DNA from: a virus
Taxonomy: Duplodnaviria; Heunggongvirae; Uroviricota; Caudoviricetes
Strand: one strand, 5' to 3'
Virus record (IMG/VR): IMGVR_UViG_2778261085_000007
Coordinates: 1-9,274 of that record
Length of the DNA stretch: 9,274 nt
Below the pieces are notes generated by a model. It saw only the letters and a program-made list of their open reading frames with translations. It was not told where the DNA came from and did not search any database. Below, piece after piece: positions 1-9,274 of this stretch; position 1 is the stretch's first letter, and every line of letters starts with the position of its first letter. Made by a program: the position numbers and the translations under genes.

Positions 1-147
1 CTGGTTAAGGATATCTTCAGTGGTAAATGCACGGAATGTTATTCCCGGACATATGAAGTGGATGCCACGGATGAAGAAATTTCTGTTGAATGTGATCTTA
101 ACGCGAATATGGCGGAGATTGTAACAGCCACGTTGTTGCCTGTTTAA
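1..147 (+). CDS. 3' end of an unidentified ORF (C-terminal 48 codons, LVKDIFSGKCTECYSRTYEVDATDEEISVECDLNANMAEIVTATLLPV*), 5' end outside window
   Basis: Frame 1 is open from position 1 to TAA at 145-147; contains a CxxC pair. No homolog recognised. Absent from the ORF track because its start is outside the window. Confidence 0.3.
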   Translation: MVKDIFSGKCTECYSRTYEVDATDEEISVECDLNANMAEIVTATLLPV

Positions 148-174
148 TGAATGACAGGTGTTCTCATTTGTACG

Positions 175-181
175 GGTCCTT
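175..181 (+). other. cosQ-like element (GGGTCCT) about 22 bp upstream of cosN
   Basis: Segment tacGGGTCCTtccgg at 172-185 matches the conserved motif near the lambda right end at the equivalent distance from cosN (from memory of lambda). Confidence 0.5.
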
Positions 182-202
182 CCGGAGAGGGGGATAACCA
201 CG

Positions 203-214
203 GGGCGGCAGCGG
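203..214 (+). other. cosN, predicted terminase nicking site / 12-nt cohesive end (gggcggcagcgg)
   Basis: acg|gggcggcagcgg|cgcggattttcgctatttatgaaaat aligns with lambda acg|GGGCGGCGACCT|CGCGGGTTTTCGCTATTTATGAAAAT; lies 188 bp upstream of the nu1 ATG, as in lambda. Exact nick positions are inferred by homology only. Confidence 0.65.
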
Positions 215-390
215 CGCGGATTTTCGCTATTTATGAAAATTTTTCGGGGAAAAGTGTGTCGGTACTTCTCGTGTGTAACTCATTGTTTTTTCATCAATCA
301 CATCCGTAAAAGGTCCGACATGAAAGTGCCCGAAAAAGACGTTTTTGAGCACTTCCATGTCGGACCCTGCATTTGATATGGAAATGTTTT
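215..390 (+). promoter_or_regulatory. cosB, terminase small-subunit binding region with three R-like elements
   Basis: Inverted repeat ggtccgacatg (312-322) / catgtcggacc (356-366), plus a related same-orientation copy gtgtcggtac (256-265). Spacing from cosN (+53, +109, +153) matches lambda R3, R2, R1. An A/T-rich T6-containing spacer at 280-300 sits where lambda has the IHF site I1. Confidence 0.55.
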
Positions 391-939
391 ATGAAGGTTA
401 ATAAAAAGAAGCTCGCGGAAATTTTCAACGTGGATCCACGAACGATTGAACGCTGGCAGTCTCAGGGGCTCTCTTGTGTCTCTGGTGGTAGTAAGGGGGT
501 TGAATCTGTATTTGATACCGCCATGGCAATTCAGTGGTATGCGCAGCGCGAAGCCGATATTGAAAACGAAAAACTCCGCAAAGAGACCGAGGATTTGCGT
601 GCGGCTGCGGAATCAGATTTACAACCCGGCACCATTGACTATGAGCGCTACCGACTCACAAAAGCACAGGCTGATGCACAGGAACTGAAAAATGCCCGCG
701 AAGAAGGGCTGGTACTGGAAACGGAATTGTTTACCTTCATTCTGCAACGTGTGGCACAGGAGATTTCGGGGATACTTGTACGTGTGCCGCTGACATTACA
801 GCGTAAATATCCGGATATTTCACCGTCACACCTTGATGTGGTGAAAACTGAAATCGCAAAAGCCTCCAACGTTGCAGCTAAAGCTGGTGAGAACGTAGGC
901 GGGTGGATTGATGATTTCAGACGCACAGAAGGCAGCTAA
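391..939 (+). CDS. nu1: Terminase small subunit (gpNu1-like), 182 aa
   Basis: [27 protein letters not shown]... aligns with lambda gpNu1 (MEVNKKQLADIFGASIRTIQNWQEQGM...) over its whole length, including the N-terminal winged-HTH. ATG at 391 chosen over the ORF-track TTG at 373 because it matches the lambda N-terminus. Confidence 0.92.
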
Positions 940-2827
940 TGCAGCCGGTGCGATAGCAACAGGGCTTGTATCTCTCAATATTCCGGTACCACTGACGACA
1001 GTTCAGTGGGCTGATAAGCATTATTATCTGCCAAAAGAGTCTTCATATACTCCCGGGCAATGGGAAACACTGCCGTTTCAGGTTGCCATCATGAACAGCA
1101 TGGGGAATGACCGGATCCGCACCGTTAATCTGATTAAATCGGCGCGTGTTGGTTACACCAAAATGCTGTTGGGGGTGGAGGCTTATTTTATTGAACACAA
1201 ATCCCGTAACAGCCTGCTTTTTCAGCCGACAGATTCTGCGGCAGAAGATTTTATGAAATCCCATGTCGAACCAACGATAAGAGACGTTCCTGTATTACTG
1301 GAGCTGGCTCCGTGGTTTGGCAGAAAACATCGGGACAACACGCTTACCCTGAAACGTTTCTCCTCCGGTGTGGGATTCTGGTGTCTGGGCGGAGCTGCTG
1401 CCAAAAACTACCGTGAAAAATCTGTGGATGTGGTCTGCTATGACGAACTCTCCTCGTTTGAACCGGATGTGGAAAAAGAAGGCTCACCAACCCTGCTTGG
1501 CGATAAGCGTATCGAAGGTTCGGTATGGCCTAAATCCATACGCGGCTCAACGCCCAAAATTAAAGGATTTTGCCAGATTGAAAAAGCCGCGAACGAATCT
1601 GCACATTTTATGCGGTTTTATGTGCCATGCCCTCATTGTGGTGAAGCCCAGTATCTGAAGTTTGGCGATGATGCGACAACCTTTGGCCTGAAATGGGAGA
1701 AGGGCAAGCCGGAGACGGTGTATTACCTGTGTGAACATAATGGCTGTGTGATCCGTCAGTCGGAACTTGACCAGACCGACGGGCGGTGGATTTGTGACAA
1801 TACCGGGATGTGGACGCGTGACGGTCTGACATTTTACAGCGCCGGTGATGAGGAAATCCCGCCACCGCGCTCAATCTCGTACCACATCTGGACGGCATAC
1901 AGCCCGTTCACCACCTGGGTACAGATTGTTTATGACTGGCTTGATGCACTGAAGGATCCGAATGGCGTCAAGACGTTCATTAACACCACGCTGGGGGAGC
2001 CTTATGAAGAGGCTGTGGCAGAAAAACTGAGCTTTGAGTTGTTGCTGGAAAAAGTCTGCCACTATGATGCGCAGGTTCCCCTGCGGGTGGTTTACCTGAC
2101 CGCAGGGATCGACTCTCAGAAAAACCGTTATGAGATTTATGTCTGGGGCTGGGCTCCTGGCGAAGAAGCTTTTCTGATTGACAAGCAGATCATCATGGGG
2201 AGACCGGAAGATGAGGACACCCTTAAACGCGTTGATGCCGTGATCCGGAAAAAATACCGTCATGCAGATGGCACTGAAATTTCCATTTCCCGCGTCTGCT
2301 GGGATACCGGTGGTATTGACCAGGACATTGTGTATCAGCGATCCAGAAAACACGGCACTTTTTTTGTGCTCCCCATCAAAGGGGCGTCGGTGTACGGCAA
2401 GCCGGTGATCACCATGCCAAAAAAGCGAAACCAGCGTGGTGTGTTTTTGTGTGAGGTGGGTTCCGATACCGTCAAGGAAATGCTGTATGCGCGTTTTGCC
2501 CTGCCGGTGGTATCTGCCAGTGAAGTCGCACCGTATACCTTCCGTTTTCCGGATAACCCTGACATTTTTTCTGATGTTGAAGCTAAACAACTCGTGGCAG
2601 AAGAGCTGGTTGAAAAAGTTGTGAACGGGCGGGTGAAACTCCAGTGGGATGCCAGAAAACGGCGTAATGAAGCCCTGGACTGTCTGGTGTATGCCTATGC
2701 AGCGCTGCGCATTTCCGTTCAGCGGTGGCAACTGGATCTGGATGCACTGGCCCGCGCCAGAAGAGATGAACAGGACGACGATGAAATGACTATTGAAGAA
2801 ATCGCGGCTGCTCTGAGTGGAGGATAA
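911..2827 (+). CDS. A: Terminase large subunit (gpA-like), 638 aa
   Basis: Full-length alignment with lambda gpA; Walker A segment KSARVGYTK (nt 1136-1162) at the same residue positions as lambda KSARVGYSK; conserved CPHCGE and [13 protein letters not shown] segments. Start overlaps the nu1 3' end as in lambda. ATG 911 preferred over TTG 908. Confidence 0.95.
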
Positions 2828-2853
2828 GTGATGATTTATACGCATGAAATGCT

Positions 2854-3045
2854 ATGCGATGCGATGCCCGCCGGGCGTTACATGAACTGATGATCGGACG
2901 TGCTGTGGTTTCCGTCAGCAAGGACGGGCGTCAGGTTCAGTATTCGCGGGCGACAATTGGTGAACTGCGTCAGTATATTGAAGAGCTGGAAAGTGCGCTG
3001 GGTGTATCCGGACGGCGTCGTGGCCCGGCAGGAGTGTGGCTGTGA
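2854..3045 (+). CDS. W: Head-tail joining / head completion protein (gpW-like), 63 aa as written
   Basis: ...ARRALHELMIGRAVVSVSKDGRQVQYSRATIGELRQYIEELESALGVSGRRRGPAGVWL aligns with lambda gpW (...[59 protein letters not shown]). The ATG at 2854 has no Shine-Dalgarno; an SD-linked ATG at 2831 is out of frame (see findings). Confidence 0.75.
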   Translation: MRCDARRALHELMIGRAVVSVSKDGRQVQYSRATIGELRQYIEELESALGVSGRRRGPAGVWL

Positions 3046-4613
3046 ACGGTGAACTGGTGGATATTCATGGGCAGCCTTTACGGCAAAGCATGGGATATTC
3101 TGGTGGTGGTTCCGGGTTCGGTGGGCAAATGGCAGAATGGCTGCCTGCACCGGAAAGTGCCGACGTGGCGCTCTTACCTTCCATTCATCTGGGTAACGCC
3201 CGCGCGGATGATCTGGTCCGTAACAACGGTATTGCATCGAATGCAGTGGAAATTCATAAGGATCATATTGTCGGGCACATGTTTCGTCTGAGTTACCGTC
3301 CCAACTGGCGCTGGCTGGGGATGTCGGAAGCAGATTCACATGCTTTTATTGAAGATGTTGAGGCGGCGTGGATGGAATACTGCGATCCGGTGTTTGGTAC
3401 GATGGATGTAGAAGGGCGTCGTTCGTTTACCGAATTCATTCGTGAAGGGGTGGGGGTCCATACGTTTAACGGTGAAATTTTTGTCCAGCCCGTATGGGAT
3501 GCGGAATCCACGTCATTATTCCGGACGAAATTCAAAACCATCAGCCCGAAGCGTGTCAGTACACCCGGTTATGGTACCGGCGATCGTTTTATGCGTGCCG
3601 GGGTGGAAATAAACCGACACGGAAAAGCGCTGGCCTACCATGTTCAGGATGATGACTGGCCCGGCTACGGTGTCAGTAAATGGACACGAATTACGGCAAC
3701 ACTGCCTTCCGGACGACCGGGAATGATCCATGTGTTTCAGCCACAGGAAGACGGGCAGACCCGCGGGGCCAACCAGTTTTATTCTGTAATGGAGCGTCTC
3801 AAGATGCTCGACACACTGCAGGCCACGCAACTGCAGTCGGCGGTGGTTCGCGCCATGTATGCCGCCACGATTGAATCCACACTGGATTCGGAAAAAGCGT
3901 TTGAATATATCGCCGGGGTGGGAGATGGAGGTAAAAATCCCCTGAACACCATCATGAAAGGCTACGCGCGTTATTACGCCACCAATACGGTAAAACTGGG
4001 CGGGGTCCGTATTCCGCATCTTTACCCGGGAGATTCACTGAATCTGCAGACAGCCCAGAATGCGGATAATGGTTTTTCTGAACTGGAAAAGGCGCTGTTA
4101 CGTTACATTGCTGCCGGACTGGGTGTGTCGTATGAGCAGCTTTCCCGGGATTATTCACAGGTCAGTTATTCCAGTGCCAGGGCATCCGCCAATGAGTCGT
4201 GGCGGTATTTTATGGGAAAACGAAAATTTGTGGCCAGTCGCCTGGCGTCACAGATGTTTGCCTGCTGGCTGGAGGAAGCCCTTATTCGTGGTGTGATCCG
4301 TCCGCCGAAATCCCGTTTCTCATTCTGGGAGGCTCGTTCCGGGTGGTGCCGTGCCGAGTGGATTGGTGCCGGTCGTATGGCGATTGATGGCCTTAAGGAA
4401 GTGCAGGAAGCGGTGATGCGCATTGAAGGCGGCCTGAGTACATACGAGAAAGAGCTGGCCCTGATGGGGGATGACTATCAGGAGATTTTCCGCCAGCAGC
4501 TACGGGAAACTCAGGAGCGACAGGCTGCCGGTCTTCCGCGTCCGGTCTGGATAAAGGACGCGTTTCAACAGCAGATCCGACAGACAACGGGAGAAAAAGG
4601 CGATGCGCTGTAA
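3042..4613 (+). CDS. B: Portal protein (gpB-like), about 523 aa
   Basis: Full-length alignment with lambda gpB (GGGSGFGG, NARADDLVRNNG, QTRGAN, LLRYIAAGLGVSYEQLSR, GRMAIDGLKEVQEAVM and more). GTG at 3042 overlaps the W stop as GTGA (lambda has ATGA at this junction) with AGGAG 7 nt upstream; in-frame GTG at 3036 is an alternative start. Confidence 0.93.
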   Translation: MNGELVDIHGQPLRQSMGYSGGGSGFGGQMAEWLPAPESADVALLPSIHLGNARADDLVRNNGIASNAVEIHKDHIVGHMFRLSYRPNWRWLGMSEADSHAFIEDVEAAWMEYCDPVFGTMDVEGRRSFTEFIREGVGVHTFNGEIFVQPVWDAESTSLFRTKFKTISPKRVSTPGYGTGDRFMRAGVEINRHGKALAYHVQDDDWPGYGVSKWTRITATLPSGRPGMIHVFQPQEDGQTRGANQFYSVMERLKMLDTLQATQLQSAVVRAMYAATIESTLDSEKAFEYIAGVGDGGKNPLNTIMKGYARYYATNTVKLGGVRIPHLYPGDSLNLQTAQNADNGFSELEKALLRYIAAGLGVSYEQLSRDYSQVSYSSARASANESWRYFMGKRKFVASRLASQMFACWLEEALIRGVIRPPKSRFSFWEARSGWCRAEWIGAGRMAIDGLKEVQEAVMRIEGGLSTYEKELALMGDDYQEIFRQQLRETQERQAAGLPRPVWIKDAFQQQIRQTTGEKGDAL

Positions 4614-6219
4614 TTTATCACATATTGCCGCGATGGCATTTAATGAGCCGCTTTTACTGGAACCCGCCTATGCGCGGGTTTTCTTTTGCGCACTGGGTAA
4701 GGAGATGGGGGCGGGCAGCCTTGCCGTTCCGCAGCAGGCCGTTCAGCTTGACGCCGATGGTATGCAGCTGGCGGTTACCGATTATATGACTGGTGGTCCG
4801 CGTCCGGTAAAGAGTTACCAGGTGAAAAATGGTATTGCCATTCTGCCGGTGAGCGGCACGCTGGTACATAAAATGGGTACCCTGCGGCCATATTCCGGTA
4901 TGACCGGTTATGACGGTCTGACTGCCCGTCTTAAGTCAGCGGTGAACGACCCGGATGTACGCGGCATTTTACTGGATATCGACAGTCCGGGCGGTCAGGC
5001 TGCCGGGGCGTTTGACTGTGCTGACATGATTTACCGTCTGCGGGAACAGAAGCCCGTGTGGGCGCTGTGTAATGACATGGCCTGTTCAGCCGCCATGTTG
5101 CTGGCGGCGGCCTGTACGCGTCGGCTGGTCACGCAGACGGCAAAAATTGGTTCGATTGGTGTGATGATGGCGCACACCAGTTACGAGAAACAACTGGCAC
5201 AGGAAGGCGTGGATATCACGCTGATTTACTCCGGGCAGCACAAGGTTGACGGCAACAGTATTCAGGCATTGCCGACAGGTGTGCGTGCGGATTTTCAGCG
5301 CCGTATTGATGAGGCCCGCCGGATGTTTGTCGACAAGGTGGCACTTTATACGGGGCTGAGTTCAGAGGTGGTGATGAATACCGAGGCTGCCGTTTATGAC
5401 GGTCAGGCAGGCATTGATACAGGCCTGGCTGATCAACTGATTAATGCTGCAGATGCCGTTGATGTAATGGTTTCTGCTCTGAACGACTCTGTTACACAGG
5501 AGAATACGATGACAACAAAAAATCTCACCGTTGCTGAAGCGGTGTCCCAGGAAAATCAGCGCGTGATGGGGATCCTGAATTGTCAGGAGGCGAAAGGACG
5601 CGAAAAACTGGCGCAGATGCTGGCAGGTCAGCAGGGAATGTCAGTTGAGCAGGCAAAAACATTACTGGCGGCAGCACCGGTTGCCGGTACTGACAGCACA
5701 GGCAATCAGATTGTGGCACTTCCGGAAGCAAAAGGACGTGAACAACTGGCACGGACGCTGGCTGAACAGCCGGGAATGACGGTGGAGCAGGCGAAAACGT
5801 TACTGGCAGCGGCACCGGTTGCCGGTGCGGCAAGTACCGGCGAGCAGATTATGGCACTTCCGGAAGCAAAAGGGCGTGAACAACTCGCACAGGCGCTGGC
5901 TGAACAGCCTGGAATGACGGTGGAACAGGCGAAAATGCTACTGGCAGCGGCACCGGAAACCGGTACGGCAAGTACCAGCGATCAAATTATTGCGTTGCCG
6001 GAAGCAAAAGGACGCGAAAAACTGGCACAGGCGCTGGCTGAACAACCGGGAATGACAGTGGAGCAGGCGAAAACGCTGCTGGCAGCTGCGCCATCAGTAT
6101 CGCAACCGTCACAGGTAACACTTTTTGAGCGCTTCATGGCACAGCATGCCGCCAGTGCCGTTTCCGGTGGCGGAACTGCCGGGAACGGGGAAGAAGAACT
6201 GCTGATGAGTATGCCGTAA
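4603..6219 (+). CDS. C: Prohead protease (gpC-like, S49/ClpP-fold family) with a repeat-expanded C-terminal scaffolding domain, 538 aa
   Basis: HIAAMAFNEPLLLEPAYARVFFCAL..., PVSGTL, PYSGMTGY, LTQTAKIGSIGVMMAH and LIYSGQHKVDGN align with lambda gpC. ATG 4603 is preceded by a purine-rich Shine-Dalgarno-like run (GGGAGA, 4589-4594) and overlaps the B stop by 11 nt. About 100 aa longer than lambda gpC because of the tandem repeat. Confidence 0.93.
   Translation: MRCNLSHIAAMAFNEPLLLEPAYARVFFCALGKEMGAGSLAVPQQAVQLDADGMQLAVTDYMTGGPRPVKSYQVKNGIAILPVSGTLVHKMGTLRPYSGMTGYDGLTARLKSAVNDPDVRGILLDIDSPGGQAAGAFDCADMIYRLREQKPVWALCNDMACSAAMLLAAACTRRLVTQTAKIGSIGVMMAHTSYEKQLAQEGVDITLIYSGQHKVDGNSIQALPTGVRADFQRRIDEARRMFVDKVALYTGLSSEVVMNTEAAVYDGQAGIDTGLADQLINAADAVDVMVSALNDSVTQENTMTTKNLTVAEAVSQENQRVMGILNCQEAKGREKLAQMLAGQQGMSVEQAKTLLAAAPVAGTDSTGNQIVALPEAKGREQLARTLAEQPGMTVEQAKTLLAAAPVAGAASTGEQIMALPEAKGREQLAQALAEQPGMTVEQAKMLLAAAPETGTASTSDQIIALPEAKGREKLAQALAEQPGMTVEQAKTLLAAAPSVSQPSQVTLFERFMAQHAASAVSGGGTAGNGEEELLMSMP
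5509..6219 (+). CDS. nu3: Scaffolding protein (gpNu3-like), nested in frame within the 3' part of C, 236 aa
   Basis: Internal in-frame ATG at 5509 preceded by AGGAG (5498-5502) with a 6-nt spacer; product MTTKNLTVAEAVSQENQRVMGILNCQEAKGRE... aligns with lambda Nu3 (MTKETQ...AAENSRIMGILNCEEAHGREEQ...). Lambda has the same nested in-frame arrangement. Confidence 0.7.
   Translation: MTTKNLTVAEAVSQENQRVMGILNCQEAKGREKLAQMLAGQQGMSVEQAKTLLAAAPVAGTDSTGNQIVALPEAKGREQLARTLAEQPGMTVEQAKTLLAAAPVAGAASTGEQIMALPEAKGREQLAQALAEQPGMTVEQAKMLLAAAPETGTASTSDQIIALPEAKGREKLAQALAEQPGMTVEQAKTLLAAAPSVSQPSQVTLFERFMAQHAASAVSGGGTAGNGEEELLMSMP
5587..6093 (+). repeat. In-frame tandem repeat, 138-bp unit (46 aa), 3 full copies plus 1 partial
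   Basis: Units start at 5587, 5725, 5863 and 6001 (partial, 93 bp). Each encodes EAKGRE(K/Q)LA..LA(E/G)Q(P/Q)GM(T/S)VEQAK(T/M)LLAAAP..G..ST..QI.ALP. Copies differ at many synonymous positions, so the duplication is not very recent. Confidence 0.9.
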
Positions 6220-6259
6220 GCGGGGATCCGTGATTCAGATAAATCAGGAGACTGAGAAA

Positions 6260-6595
6260 ATGATTAAAACCACCACAGAAAAGCGCGCGGACGGGCGCAT
6301 TTTTGCCGGAAGCGATCCGGTATATACCGCAACAGGTACCAGTGGTATCAGTGCTGCCACGCCTTCACTGACGCCACTGATGCTGGATGACGCCAGCGGA
6401 AAACTGGTGGCATGGGATGGTCAGAAAGCCGGAACGGCTGTGGGGGTGCTGGTACTGGCGCTGGCCGGGACCGAGCCCACACTGACGTACTACAAAAGCG
6501 GTACGTTTGCCACCGAATCGCTGGTCTGGCCGGATTCGGTGGATGCGGTGAAAAAAGCCAACGCGTTTGTGGGAAGTGCCATCAGCCACGCCTGA
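6260..6595 (+). CDS. D: Head decoration protein (gpD-like), 111 aa
   Basis: ...TPLMLDDASGKLVAWDGQKAGTAVGVL...LTYYKSGTFATESLVWP...ANAFVGSAIS aligns with lambda gpD (...[27 protein letters not shown]...LTFYKSGTFRYEDVLWP...RTAFAGTAIS). ATG 6260 with AGGAG at 6246-6250 preferred over the ORF-track GTG at 6230. Confidence 0.88.
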   Translation: MIKTTTEKRADGRIFAGSDPVYTATGTSGISAATPSLTPLMLDDASGKLVAWDGQKAGTAVGVLVLALAGTEPTLTYYKSGTFATESLVWPDSVDAVKKANAFVGSAISHA

Positions 6596-6617
6596 TGGTG
6601 AAGTGATTAACTGAAAA

Positions 6618-6649
6618 AACGGGTCGTGATGCGGCCCGTTTGTGTTTTT
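6618..6649 (+). terminator. Stem-loop plus U-tract between D and E (possible partial terminator or RNA-stability element)
   Basis: aacgggtcg (6618-6626), loop tgatg, cggcccgtt (6632-6640), then tgtgttttt. Lambda has a hairpin plus T-run at the same D-E junction. Confidence 0.4.
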
Positions 6650-6664
6650 AAAGGAAAGTCAATT

Positions 6665-7693
6665 ATGGGGTTATTTACCACGCGTCAGTTGCTCGGCTAC
6701 ACCGAGCAGAAAGTGAAATTCCGTGCGCTGTTTCTGGAGCTGTTTTTTCGTCGTACGGTCACTTTCCATACTCAGGAAGTGATGCTGGATAAAATCACCG
6801 GAAAAACACCGGTTGCGGCATATGTGTCTCCGGTTGTGTCAGGTAAGGTACTGCGCAGTCGTGGTGGTGAAACCCGCGTGTTACGCCCCGGCTATGTTAA
6901 ACCAAAACACCGGCTGGATTATCAGCAGGCGGTGGAGCGTCTTCCTGGGGAAGATCCGGCCCGTCTTAATGACCCGGCCTACCGTCGTCTGCGTATTCTG
7001 ACTGACAACCTGAAACAGGAAGAACAGGCGATTGTGCAGGTGGAAGAAATGCAGGCGGTAAGCGCTGTTCTTCAGGGTCGGTACACCATGAGCGGAGAAC
7101 AGTTTGAGACGGTGGAAGTGGATTTTGGACGTTCTGCCACCAATAACATTACGCAGGCAGAGGGACGCAAATGGTCAGAACAGAATTCTGACACCTTTGA
7201 TCCGACGCATGATCTGGATGCGTACTGCGATTTTGCTTCCGGTACCATCAATATTGCGATTATGGACGGTACTGTCTGGCGTATGCTGAACGGTTTTAAG
7301 CTGTTTCGTGAAAAACTGGATACCCGCCGTGGCTCAAAATCTGAACTGGAAACCGCGCTGAAAGATCTGGGTTCCGTGGTTTCTTTTAAAGGTTATTACG
7401 GTGATCTGGCCATCATGGTGGCGAAAACAACGTATGTTGATGAAAACGGGGATGAGCAGCGTTATCTGCCGGAAGGCACACTGATTCTTGGAAACACTCA
7501 GGTGGAGGGTGTCCGTTGTTATGGCGCAATCCAGGATAACCAGGCGCTGAGTGAAGGGATCACCTCTGCAATTCGTTATCCGAAACACTGGTTAGAGGTG
7601 GGGGACCCGGGGTGCGAATATACCATGACGCAGTCTGCGCCGTTGATGGTGTTGCCGGATCCGGACGCGTTTGTGGTGGTTCAGGTGAAATAA
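6665..7693 (+). CDS. E: Major capsid protein (gpE-like), 342 aa
   Basis: Full-length alignment with lambda gpE (YVSPVVSGKV-RSRGG, PGYVKPKH, DPAYRR, VEEMQAVSAVL, KLDTRRGS-SELETA-KDLG, GNTQ, TMTQSAPLM). ATG 6665 with AAGGAAAG upstream; the ORF-track start at 6626 adds a non-homologous leader. Confidence 0.95.
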   Translation: MGLFTTRQLLGYTEQKVKFRALFLELFFRRTVTFHTQEVMLDKITGKTPVAAYVSPVVSGKVLRSRGGETRVLRPGYVKPKHRLDYQQAVERLPGEDPARLNDPAYRRLRILTDNLKQEEQAIVQVEEMQAVSAVLQGRYTMSGEQFETVEVDFGRSATNNITQAEGRKWSEQNSDTFDPTHDLDAYCDFASGTINIAIMDGTVWRMLNGFKLFREKLDTRRGSKSELETALKDLGSVVSFKGYYGDLAIMVAKTTYVDENGDEQRYLPEGTLILGNTQVEGVRCYGAIQDNQALSEGITSAIRYPKHWLEVGDPGCEYTMTQSAPLMVLPDPDAFVVVQVK

Positions 7694-7697
7694 GGTC

Positions 7698-7724
7698 AGG
7701 CGGGATATTCCCGCCTTTTTCTTT
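7698..7724 (+). terminator. Stem-loop plus T-tract just downstream of E (intrinsic-terminator-like)
   Basis: aggcggg (7698-7704), loop atatt, cccgcct (7710-7716), then ttttcttt. Begins 5 nt after the E stop codon. Confidence 0.45.
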
Positions 7725-7743
7725 ATCGAACAGGAGAGATGTG

Positions 7744-8124
7744 ATGACAAAAGAAGAAATAACAGCGCGTCTTCAGGATCTGGCGGCAGTACTCGGGCGC
7801 GATGCCGATATTTCAGGCTCTAAAGCTGATCTTGAACAACGCCTGGCGGAGTGGGAAGAAGAATTAAGTGATAGTTCAGACGGCCTGTATAAGGATGATG
7901 AAGAACCACAACAAAAAAACGAAACACGATCCGAACGTGGGGAGAGTGAGAACCGAAATTCTGTGGATATGGTCATGGTCAAAGCTGTGGTGATGTTACA
8001 TGTCAATGCACTCCACGCCACACGGGATAACCCCGTGGCATTTGTACGTCCGGGAGAAGTGTTTCGTGTATCTGCCGTGGTGGCAGCCAGCATGGCAGAA
8101 AGTGGCCTCGTGAAAATGTGTTGA
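7744..8124 (+). CDS. FI: DNA-packaging / head assembly protein (gpFI-like), 126 aa
   Basis: MTKEEITARLQDL... and C-terminal ...LHVNALHATRDNPVAFVRPGEVFRVSAVVAASMAESGL align with lambda gpFI (MTKDELIARLRSL... / ...LHTDALHATRDEPVAFVLPGTAFRVSAGVAAEMTERGL). AGGAG at 7732-7736, 7 nt before ATG 7744; the ORF-track start at 7612 lies inside E. Confidence 0.88.
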   Translation: MTKEEITARLQDLAAVLGRDADISGSKADLEQRLAEWEEELSDSSDGLYKDDEEPQQKNETRSERGESENRNSVDMVMVKAVVMLHVNALHATRDNPVAFVRPGEVFRVSAVVAASMAESGLVKMC

Positions 8125-8137
8125 ATGTGGGGGAAAG

Positions 8138-8512
8138 GTGGCAGATTTCTATAATCCGTTTGATGCCGCCGTCGCCATGGCTGACGAGGTCATTCTTTGT
8201 CATATGGGGATTACGGCGGTAATTACGTCCGGTCAGCTTGAAGGAAAAACACTCAGGGGTGTTTTTGATGATCCTGAAAAAATTTCGTTCGTTGCCGGAG
8301 GAGTACGGTTTGAAGATTCTTCACCGTCTTTGTTTGTGAAAACAGCAGATATTACGGGACTGCGCCGTCTGGATACGCTGGAGGTTGGCGGGGATCTTTT
8401 TCGGGTGGATCGCATTACTCCGGACGACGGGGGATGCTGTTATATCCGTCTGCAACGGTGTGACAGTTCCCGGGGGGATATCAGTACAGGGCGATATTAT
8501 GAAAGGTCTTGA
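8138..8512 (+). CDS. FII: Head-tail connector / head completion protein (gpFII-like), 124 aa
   Basis: MADFYNPFDAAVAMADE...RGVFDDPEKIS...SSPSLFVKT...RVDRITPDDGG aligns with lambda gpFII (MADFDNLFDAAIARADE...RGVFDDPENIS...SSPSLFVRT...WVDRVSPDDGG). GTG start, as in lambda. Confidence 0.88.
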   Translation: MADFYNPFDAAVAMADEVILCHMGITAVITSGQLEGKTLRGVFDDPEKISFVAGGVRFEDSSPSLFVKTADITGLRRLDTLEVGGDLFRVDRITPDDGGCCYIRLQRCDSSRGDISTGRYYERS

Positions 8513-9089
8513 AAACGCCATCCGCAATCTGAACAGCCTTGATACCCGTATGGTGCCACAGGCCAGCGCCTGGGCAATAAATCGTGTGGCACAGAAAGCC
8601 ATTTCTCAGGCGACCCGACAGGTTGCCCACGATACCGTTGCCGGTGATAACCAGGTGAAGGGGATCCCCCTGAAACTGGTCAGGGGGCGCGTCAGAATGC
8701 TGAGCGCCAGCCCTGCCGGAAAAATGTATGCCCGGATCCGCGTTAACCGCGGCAATCTTCCCGCCATCAAACTGAGCACAACGCGAAGGCGTGCCGGTGA
8801 CGGGCTGAGGGTGGGGAAATATTTTTTCCAGGGCGCGTTTATCCGGCAACTGGCGAATGGTCGCTGGCATGTTCTGAAACGCCTTCCTGAAGCGCGTTTT
8901 GCAACAGGGCGTGACCATCAGGGCAGGCCGAAAAAAAATCGCCTGCCTGTGGCGGTTGTGAAAATCCCGCTGGCCGGAGCGCTGACACAGGCATTTGAGG
9001 ATGCCCGTAAAAGCGTCATTGATAACGAGATGCCGAAACAACTGGGGTATGCCCTGAAACAACAACTGAGGTCATATCTGAACCTATGA
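8499..9089 (+). CDS. Z: Tail completion protein (gpZ-like), 196 aa
   Basis: MKGLENAIRNLNSLD..., INRVAQKAISQ..., RIRVNRGNLPAIKL, GAFIRQLANGRWHV, VVKIPLAGALTQAF and LGYALKQQLR align with lambda gpZ (MAIKGLEQAVENLS..., INRVASSAISQ, RIKVNRGDLPVIKL, GAFIQQLKNGRWHV, VVKIPMAVPLTTAF, LGYALQHQLR). Start overlaps the FII 3' end by 14 nt. Confidence 0.85.
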   Translation: MKGLENAIRNLNSLDTRMVPQASAWAINRVAQKAISQATRQVAHDTVAGDNQVKGIPLKLVRGRVRMLSASPAGKMYARIRVNRGNLPAIKLSTTRRRAGDGLRVGKYFFQGAFIRQLANGRWHVLKRLPEARFATGRDHQGRPKKNRLPVAVVKIPLAGALTQAFEDARKSVIDNEMPKQLGYALKQQLRSYLNL

Positions 9090-9274
9090 ACCGACACACA
9101 CAAATTCGTCAGGCCGTATTGTCGCGCCTGAAAACAACGTGCGGGGAAGATACCGTTTTGTTTGACGGTCTTCCTGCCTTTATTGATGCACAGGAGTTGC
9201 CTGCCGTGGCGGTGTGGCTGAGTGATGCTCAGTACACCGGAAAAATGACGGATGAAGATGACTGGCAGGCTGTT
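9086..9274 (+). CDS. U: Tail terminator protein (gpU-like), N-terminal 63 codons; continues past the window end
   Basis: MNRHTQIRQAVLSRL...FDGLPAF...LPAVAVWLSDAQYTG...DDWQA aligns with lambda gpU (MKHTELRAAVLDAL...FDGRPAV...FPAVAVYLTGAEYTG...DTWQA). ATG 9086 overlaps the Z stop as ATGA. Absent from the ORF track because there is no stop within the window. Confidence 0.85.
   Translation, partial: MNRHTQIRQAVLSRLKTTCGEDTVLFDGLPAFIDAQELPAVAVWLSDAQYTGKMTDEDDWQAV

Follow-up and report, generated by a model that had tools for sequence, protein, structure and literature searches.

Nested protease and scaffold genes

Prohead proteases whose genes also encode a scaffold, nested or fused, occur in phages and herpesviruses alike. 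In the herpesvirus pair UL26/UL26.5 and in gpO of phage P2, protease and scaffold share a C-terminal capsid-targeting region, the extreme C-terminus binds the capsid protein and the protease removes the scaffold; no tandem module array is known in either of these nested systems. Here, a gene of this kind was analysed in a virus sequence of 9,274 nucleotides (IMG/VR record IMGVR_UViG_2778261085_000007, positions 1 to 9,274; hereafter the window), in which the scaffold region of a homologue of the lambda prohead protease gpC carries four tandem in-frame copies of a module known from the lambda scaffold Nu3. The window protein has no sequence or detectable fold relationship to UL26/UL26.5 or P2 gpO.

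Lambda Nu3 is a scaffold required for portal incorporation, and it self-associates, interacts with C and gives a two-hybrid signal with E (PMC3224144). Lambda Nu3 is reported to share its frame with the overlapping C gene (Shaw and Murialdo, 1980), and a scaffold gene nested in the same manner is proposed for the window. The likeness extends to the homologous protease and to the module itself, EAHGRE...LAAAP, flanked by ENSRIMGIL and TALDRLM helices. Lambda differs in having one module, which a low-complexity spacer of 64 amino acids (aa) separates from the protease. The module segment EAHGREEQARVLAETPGMTVKTARRILAAAP, which an earlier note on the window had given as single in lambda, is indeed encoded exactly, and once, by lambda J02459.

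Phage 21 gp5/gp6 shares with the window the gene position, an S49 protease with a scaffold that is nested (probably so in the window), a spacer of 25-28 aa, a tandem module and a tail. In the GenBank record of this phage (M81255.1), gene 6 contains three repeat_regions, which bear the labels 'Tri1 box', 'Tri box' and 'Tri3 box' and the remark 'function unknown; putative'. They translate as three diverged copies of the Nu3 module, with cores at 326, 376 and 423. The Tri boxes of gp5/gp6 were reportedly described by Smith and Feiss in 1993 (Gene 126:1). Our literature search found no description of Tri boxes or of the function of the Nu3 C-terminus. Gifsy-1 STM2605, a Salmonella prohead protease and lambda gpC homologue, likewise has three diverged copies in the same architecture and is 65% identical to the window protein; many Salmonella prophage homologues resemble it in their three-copy array.

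The repeat array

The open reading frame (ORF) in question and the parts of its array are as follows.

4603..6219, plus strand: gpC homologue, an S49 prohead protease with C-terminal scaffold region, 538 aa and stop (ORF list, Pfam, PHROG, homology)
5542..5586, plus strand: leading helix segment SQENQRVMGILNCQ before the first core (sequence; invariant E/N/R/V/M/I columns; helix 8-23 in the AlphaFold2 model)
5587..5724, plus strand: repeat unit 1, 46 aa, consisting of a 31-aa core EAKGREKLAQMLAGQQGMSVEQAKTLLAAAP and a 15-aa linker (Tandem Repeats Finder, reading frame)
5725..5862, plus strand: repeat unit 2, 46 aa (Tandem Repeats Finder, reading frame; core 28/31 identical to units 3 and 4)
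5863..6000, plus strand: repeat unit 3, 46 aa (Tandem Repeats Finder, reading frame; fused with unit 2 as a hybrid in PapRG-04-4)
6001..6093, plus strand: repeat unit 4, core only, 31 aa, running into the unique tail (Tandem Repeats Finder, reading frame)
6094..6216, plus strand: unique C-terminal tail SVSQPSQVTLFERFMAQH...LLMSMP (conserved helix with invariant F and M; conserved terminal LLxxxP)

A single strong array was reported by Tandem Repeats Finder (TRF) at 5586-6086, with a period of 138 bp, 3.6 copies, 84% matches, 0% indels and a score of 652. Placed in the frame of ORF 4603-6219, the units number three full and one partial over a total span of 5587-6093, exactly the copies and coordinates that the earlier note had given. 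Identity at a lag of 138 reached 0.84. The next-best lag gave 0.39, no other position in the window exceeded 0.31, and 2000 codon shuffles never gave more than 0.41. Each 138-bp unit encodes 46 aa, of which the first 31 form the core (EAKGRE...LAAAP) and the remaining 15 the linker, and the four cores begin at aa 329, 375, 421 and 467 of the gpC homologue, the several tandem in-frame copies that mark a Tri-box scaffold. The leading segment (5542-5586) is the counterpart of the 'xQIMALP' stretch ahead of every later core. An antisense ORF of 102 aa, rich in Pro and Val, also lies within the array (window 5525-5833, minus strand); it is a by-product of repeated GC-rich codons and has no sign of being a gene.

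The window cores share 17-21/31 identities each with the lambda module. Compared with phage 21, unit 1 is 25/31 identical to Tri1 and 16-17/31 to Tri2 and Tri3, and from these alignments it is the positional orthologue of Tri1. A Tri1-orthologous first module after a short spacer, here 28 aa, is typical of the Tri-box type; the window departs from that type in having four copies and not exactly three. Moreover, the three cores of phage 21 are 18-19/31 identical among themselves, whereas window units 2-4 are 28-29/31 identical to each other (86-91% at the nucleotide level) and 18-22/31 to any phage 21 box. The window array is a four-copy, partly homogenised member of the phage 21 'Tri box' Nu3 scaffold type. 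The earlier note had placed the repeat correctly in the Nu3/gpC C-terminal region; its view of an unusual expansion, judged against lambda, was overstated, since phage 21 and Gifsy-1 carry three copies. The reservation made there, that most characterised lambdoid Nu3 proteins, lambda included, might already have three or four copies, applies in part, to these two and not to lambda.

Copy number in homologues and genomes

Copies were counted by applying a small hidden Markov model (HMM) of the core to the 120 best database homologues. Three copies were found in 75 of these, four in 40 and five in 3; the other two are a single-core protein of lambda type (P0048) and a truncated protein without a core. 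The 538-aa four-copy form includes clusters of 470 and 826 member sequences. Close relatives, whose comparison the earlier note had advised, carry 3, 4 or 5 copies. A near match to the array is present in 106 of 5,426 complete Escherichia coli genomes, almost all of them co-linear at the four-copy length; the array of PapRG-04-4 is exactly 138 bp shorter, and that of a few other complete E. coli genomes is shorter by 9 bp. The latter was observed in OkiPb bovine E. coli (H151-H155), for instance at NZ_AP042548.1 1496533-1497346, where the array spans 814 versus 823 bases. Units of 43 aa whose linker is shortened, of the kind present in P0031 and P0002, would account for the missing 9 bp, so that linkers too vary in length. 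No near-identical isolated phage came up when 50,697 phage records were searched by megablast, and the tblastn phage matches were only three-copy phages (phage 21, Gifsy-1, PhiR12 and ev017 type) and single-copy phages of lambda type. In the phage 21/Gifsy-1 clade, several copies are the usual state, and among E. coli prophages the four-copy allele is frequent.

Beyond these close homologues, 1.84 billion cluster representatives were searched with a profile built from the four window units, which gave 183 proteins at E <= 0.001. When a broadened HMM was applied to the top 150 of the wider family, one core was found in 135, two in 10 and three in 4, with two-copy arrays in clearly different lineages such as P0143 and P0203. 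The architecture is constant throughout: protease, spacer, n x (short helix + core) and a tail of about 41-55 aa irrespective of copy number. On these grounds, a single copy is both typical and ancestral. On this distribution, duplication of the module occurred more than once and the enterobacterial clade fixed at least three copies. The step in the window lineage is from three to four rather than from one to four, because three copies are modal and phage 21 and Gifsy-1 already have three. Spacer and post-protease lengths by copy number were as follows.

1 copy: spacer before first core median 64 aa (37-141); median post-protease length 145 aa
3 copies: spacer before first core 25-28 aa; median post-protease length 204 aa
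4 copies: spacer before first core 25-28 aa; median post-protease length 238 aa
5 copies: spacer before first core 28 aa; median post-protease length 278 aa

The idea that repeats replace spacer at constant total scaffold length is therefore only partly true, as multi-copy proteins have the shortest spacer yet total length rises with copy number.

Several homologues have aberrant forms. P0044 (657 aa) has a 156-aa duplication covering the end of the protease domain together with Tri1 and Tri2, P0043 (610 aa) continues beyond unit 3 into a fused baseplate-V-like sequence, and the lambda-type P0048 (743 aa) has a large N-terminal extension; these are probably products of frameshift, assembly or recombination. 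The unannotated record of Escherichia phage 204576 (CP025907.1, nt ~1554-1990) has a frameshift within the second Tri box of its gpC homologue, leaving the cores in frames 3, 3 and 1; this is either a sequencing error or a pseudogene.

Evolution of the array

Pairs of window cores are 74-91% identical in nucleotides, with synonymous divergence (dS) of 0.24-1.67 and ratios of non-synonymous to synonymous divergence (dN/dS) of 0.04-0.19, the differences being mostly synonymous. Linkers are under weaker constraint (dN/dS 0.19-0.65). The array is old, and every core is under purifying selection. The earlier note had taken it for an older duplication and not an assembly stutter, and this is borne out by the dominance of synonymous differences and by the array of equal length in about 100 complete E. 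coli genomes.

The closeness of units 2-4 indicates, at the level of their sequences, either homogenisation or a younger duplication. In three-copy PapRG-04-4, the second core resembles window unit 2 at 97% and unit 3 at 95%, a hybrid that is the signature of unequal crossing-over. Units 1 and 2 are identical at the protein level in STEC309 and identical also in Cronobacter P0018, P0002 and P0027 reach five copies, their units being 43 aa long, and P0105 and P0108 combine the phage 21 type with an additional hybrid Tri3/Tri2 unit. From such patterns, copy number changes by unequal recombination between units, and arrays are partly homogenised. Chi sites were not found in the window.

Comparison of the window with STEC309 by position gave a dS of 0.62 for the array and 0.24 for the protease part; dN/dS was 0.12 in both, so there is no sign of positive selection. 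The faster synonymous divergence of the array is consistent with unit shuffling and not with positive selection, and an arms race was accordingly rejected as its cause.

Probable nested scaffold gene and candidate internal starts

Three features within the gpC homologue bear on a separate scaffold product.

5498..5502, plus strand: Shine-Dalgarno sequence AGGAG, 6 nt upstream of in-frame ATG 5509 (sequence; conserved in relatives H19 and H20)
5509..6219, plus strand: probable nested scaffold ORF of Nu3/gp6 type, 236 aa, 24.3 kDa, isoelectric point 4.9 (in-frame ATG with Shine-Dalgarno sequence; putative start)
5323..5325, plus strand: alternative internal in-frame ATG, a candidate only (GAGG 8 nt upstream)

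The AGGAG at 5498-5502 is positionally equivalent to the annotated ribosome-binding site of phage 21 gene 6, and ATG 5509 is homologous to the annotated (putative) start of that gene, MPQLTAT. The 236-aa product, which compares with 200 aa in phage 21, matches PHROG 8399 (head scaffolding protein, 4e-52) and PHROG 8940 (lambda Nu3-type 'capsid assembly protein', 4e-43), each in 4 stretches. ATG 5323 lies 6 codons downstream of the position of the annotated Nu3 start of lambda. A separate scaffold of Nu3/gp6 type is probably made from the internal start at 5509, with the candidate at 5323 also present.

In lambda J02459, a strong Shine-Dalgarno sequence and ATG, tcAGGAGGgcgaATG, was observed at gpC codon 309 (around locus 2395-2410), where its position corresponds both to that of window ATG 5509 and to the start of gene 6 in phage 21. 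Lambda Nu3 is nevertheless annotated from codon 239 (MDATRQ...), 70 codons further upstream and inside the protease domain. Lambda and the window each have two possible internal starts, codons 239 and 309 in lambda and 5509 and 5323 in the window, and one or both may be used.

Predicted structure of the repeat

AlphaFold2 was run on the 236-aa product with 50 aligned homologues, giving a mean predicted local distance difference test score (pLDDT) of 70.5 and a predicted template modelling score of 0.27. The model has thirteen helices, namely an N-terminal helix, four three-helix sets at the 46-aa period and a tail helix, with pLDDT of 75-83 within units and lower at linkers. The model of full-length gpC shows the same helix pattern and nothing further. 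Each unit is thus predicted to be a small three-helix module, joined to the next by a flexible linker like beads on a string. As tandem arrays of three-helix bundles, staphylococcal protein A domains, the streptococcal GA module and the Ebh/Embp repeats offer themselves for comparison.

Searches of Pfam and NCBIfam gave no domain for the repeat beyond repeat-inflated matches to unrelated helical families (T2SSK, HU N-terminus, HTH_15 and DUF732). For the helical Pfam families T2SSK, Bac_DNA_binding and HTH_15, it is at best the sum of the repeat scores that exceeds the whole-protein cut-off; no individual stretch is significant. A helix-hairpin-helix or other DNA-binding motif was also considered and rejected: Pfam gave no HhH match, and RuvA, ERCC1 and Pol beta appeared only at Foldseek E values of 1.9-9.5. 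The repeat has no sequence or fold similarity to the C-terminal helix-turn-helix coat-binding domain of P22 gp8.

The protease and the head module

The protease part of ORF 4603-6219 is assigned by Peptidase_S49 (PF01343) at aa 146-290 (E=3e-33, above the cut-off), by solved SppA structures that match aa 76-289 (8e-17) and by PHROG 53, head maturation protease. By tblastn, the ORF is 54% identical to lambda gpC over aa 4-359 and 64% identical to phage 21 gp5 over aa 1-497. Within the S49 domain, Ser162 (NDMACSAA) aligns with lambda Ser166 (NDMNCSAG), and Lys214 of HKVD, equivalent to lambda Lys218, is invariant in the alignment. A catalytic role of lambda Ser166 was reportedly described by Medina et al. 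in 2010. The C-terminal region is homologous to the lambda Nu3 module together with its flanking helices and tail. Three neighbours of the gpC homologue complete the picture.

3036..4613, plus strand: portal protein, lambda B homologue (ORF list; annotated in relatives)
6260..6595, plus strand: head decoration protein, lambda D / phage 21 Shp homologue (Pfam HDPD, E=1e-22; 336-nt gene annotated in relatives)
6665..7693, plus strand: major capsid protein, lambda E homologue and presumed partner of the scaffold (Pfam Phage_cap_E, E=9e-64)

In the window and its annotated relatives, the gene order is terminase, W-like, portal, C, D (HDPD), E (Phage_cap_E), FI and FII, so that the gpC homologue sits between the portal and the decoration and major capsid genes, the position expected of a lambda-like head module. 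Its start overlaps the portal gene end by 11 nt (window 4603-4613), likewise in annotated relatives, an arrangement that suggests translational coupling of B and C.

The array region of the window is 98.6-99.2% identical to prophages of mainly bovine E. coli. E. coli C311 harbours the closest relative of the window, a complete lambdoid prophage (NZ_CP062204.1 2699843-2740673) that adjoins truncated ompW and yciE/yciF. Genes for hokD, a Doc-family toxin, a DNA methyltransferase and Ail/Lom are present in this prophage, and the matches with at least 98% identity to the window come mostly from cattle isolates. In E. coli CFIAFB20180511 (NZ_CM143727.1 2704309-2705138), the feature under the array match is labelled 'phage portal protein' and not S49 peptidase, which suggests a portal-C fusion call from a frameshift or a misannotation.

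Proposed function and alternative explanations

It is fairly probable, taking all parts jointly, that the array represents four copies of the Nu3 helical module acting as a multivalent contact element of a nested scaffold, with copy number driven by recombination. Each 46-aa period would form a short helix 'QIMALPEA', next 'REQLAxxL' and then 'VEQAKTLLAA'; the linkers between modules are rich in Ala, Gly, Ser and Thr, and a conserved tail of about 41 aa follows. The module would be where the scaffold makes its working contact, with the inner face of the major capsid protein, with other scaffold chains or with both, and would also tether the protease inside the prohead. Four units would make one scaffold chain multivalent and longer, and the array would be degraded by gpC after shell assembly. 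It gains and loses units through unequal homologous recombination, and gene conversion partly homogenises them. A change of scaffold valency or length, which the earlier note had proposed, is plausible.

Several points weigh against this proposal. The PDB copy searched contained no solved structure with the module, Nu3 or a Nu3 capsid contact, and fold searches with the repeat returned generic, non-significant matches only. The AlphaFold2 models reach only moderate confidence (mean pLDDT 70.5 and 59.1). Extra copies are not required for T=7 assembly, since lambda works with one, as does most of the family. A second candidate for the internal start, at 5323, stands beside the putative one at 5509. 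In addition, given that herpesviruses and P2 bind the capsid protein through the extreme C-terminus, the tail at 6094-6216 could be the capsid contact and the repeats could provide self-association or spacing.

Developed in full, the latter explanation is that the repeats mainly mediate self-association or set length (scaffold-scaffold, scaffold-portal or protease spacer) and that capsid binding resides in the tail; we regard this as possible, though not as the expected outcome. C-terminal capsid-binding tails are usual in pairs of the herpesvirus and P2 type, and the window tail is conserved (F508, M512 and the terminal LLxxxP) and of constant length at any copy number. Lambda Nu3 also dimerises and is needed for portal incorporation (PMC3224144). 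Nevertheless, it was the core and not the tail that the profile search recovered across distant clades. This explanation differs from the multivalent contact element solely in the binding partner, and present data do not discriminate between the two.

Rather unlikely is the explanation that the extra copies are neutral filler, with one module or the tail sufficing and copy number drifting by unequal recombination. Lambda and 135 of the 150 family representatives function with one copy, and 3-, 4- and 5-copy alleles coexist in close relatives. Post-protease length ranges over 94-278 aa among single-copy proteins and is therefore loosely constrained, and the title of Medina (2011) calls lambda gpNu3 intrinsically disordered. 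However, all four cores, internal ones included, have the low dN/dS given above (0.04-0.19) with dS up to 1.67, and deeply diverged lineages have kept three copies (phage 21, Gifsy-1, Salmonella, Edwardsiella and P0128), although only 15-26/31 core positions are identical between them. Among the 120 closest homologues, no reversion to one copy was found in the multi-copy clade, and the spacer of multi-copy proteins (25-28 aa, versus 37-141 aa) suggests that the units took over part of the role of the region. The selection data argue against pure neutrality; they cannot identify the binding partner.

Very improbable is evasion of host defences that sense scaffold or prohead-protease proteins, with array variation as its means. 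In T1-like phages, escape mutations from type I cyclic-oligonucleotide-based antiphage signalling (CBASS) map to the scaffolding domain of a prohead-protease fusion, and this domain triggers CBASS-dependent toxicity (bioRxiv 10.1101/2023.05.21.541620). Related prophages also have diverged more in the array than in the flanks (dS 0.62 vs 0.24). The sensed scaffold of the T1-like phages is, however, a different and non-homologous one, and unit shuffling explains the faster divergence, which is synonymous; dN/dS is the same in array and protease part (0.12). Finally, an assembly artefact or protein-binding 'boxes' at the DNA level, for which only the repeat_region label in the phage 21 record speaks, can, as far as sequence data go, be dismissed almost outright, as about 100 complete genomes carry a co-linear array of equal length, the units have diverged by 9-26% of core nucleotides, mostly synonymously and with the peptide conserved, and the phage 21 boxes yield no tandem repeat to TRF and are clear only as peptide repeats.

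Significance

The repeat was flagged in phage 21 three decades ago, the four-copy array is one of its common alleles, and the finding will not surprise a specialist. The finding is useful for annotation because these proteins are now labelled only 'S49 family peptidase', and the array is a site where short-read assemblies might be expected to collapse. Across the family, the Nu3 module is the only conserved element of the post-protease region. How the valency, length and flexibility of the scaffold control capsid assembly is poorly understood for lambda, and the natural alleles with 1, 2, 3, 4 and 5 copies, near-isogenic 3-, 4- and 5-copy prophages among them, form a series for testing scaffold valency.

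A further and doubtful idea is that the array acts as an evolvable 'valency dial', recombination setting the number of capsid-binding or self-association modules per chain between 1 and 5 across the family, in which distant clades have duplicated the module independently. If true, prohead nucleation, incorporation of the portal or loading of the protease would be adjusted in their kinetics or fidelity, possibly as an answer to variants of the capsid protein or to scaffold-sensing host systems. The 3-, 4- and 5-copy alleles would then be a ready allelic series for learning how scaffold valency governs T=7 assembly.

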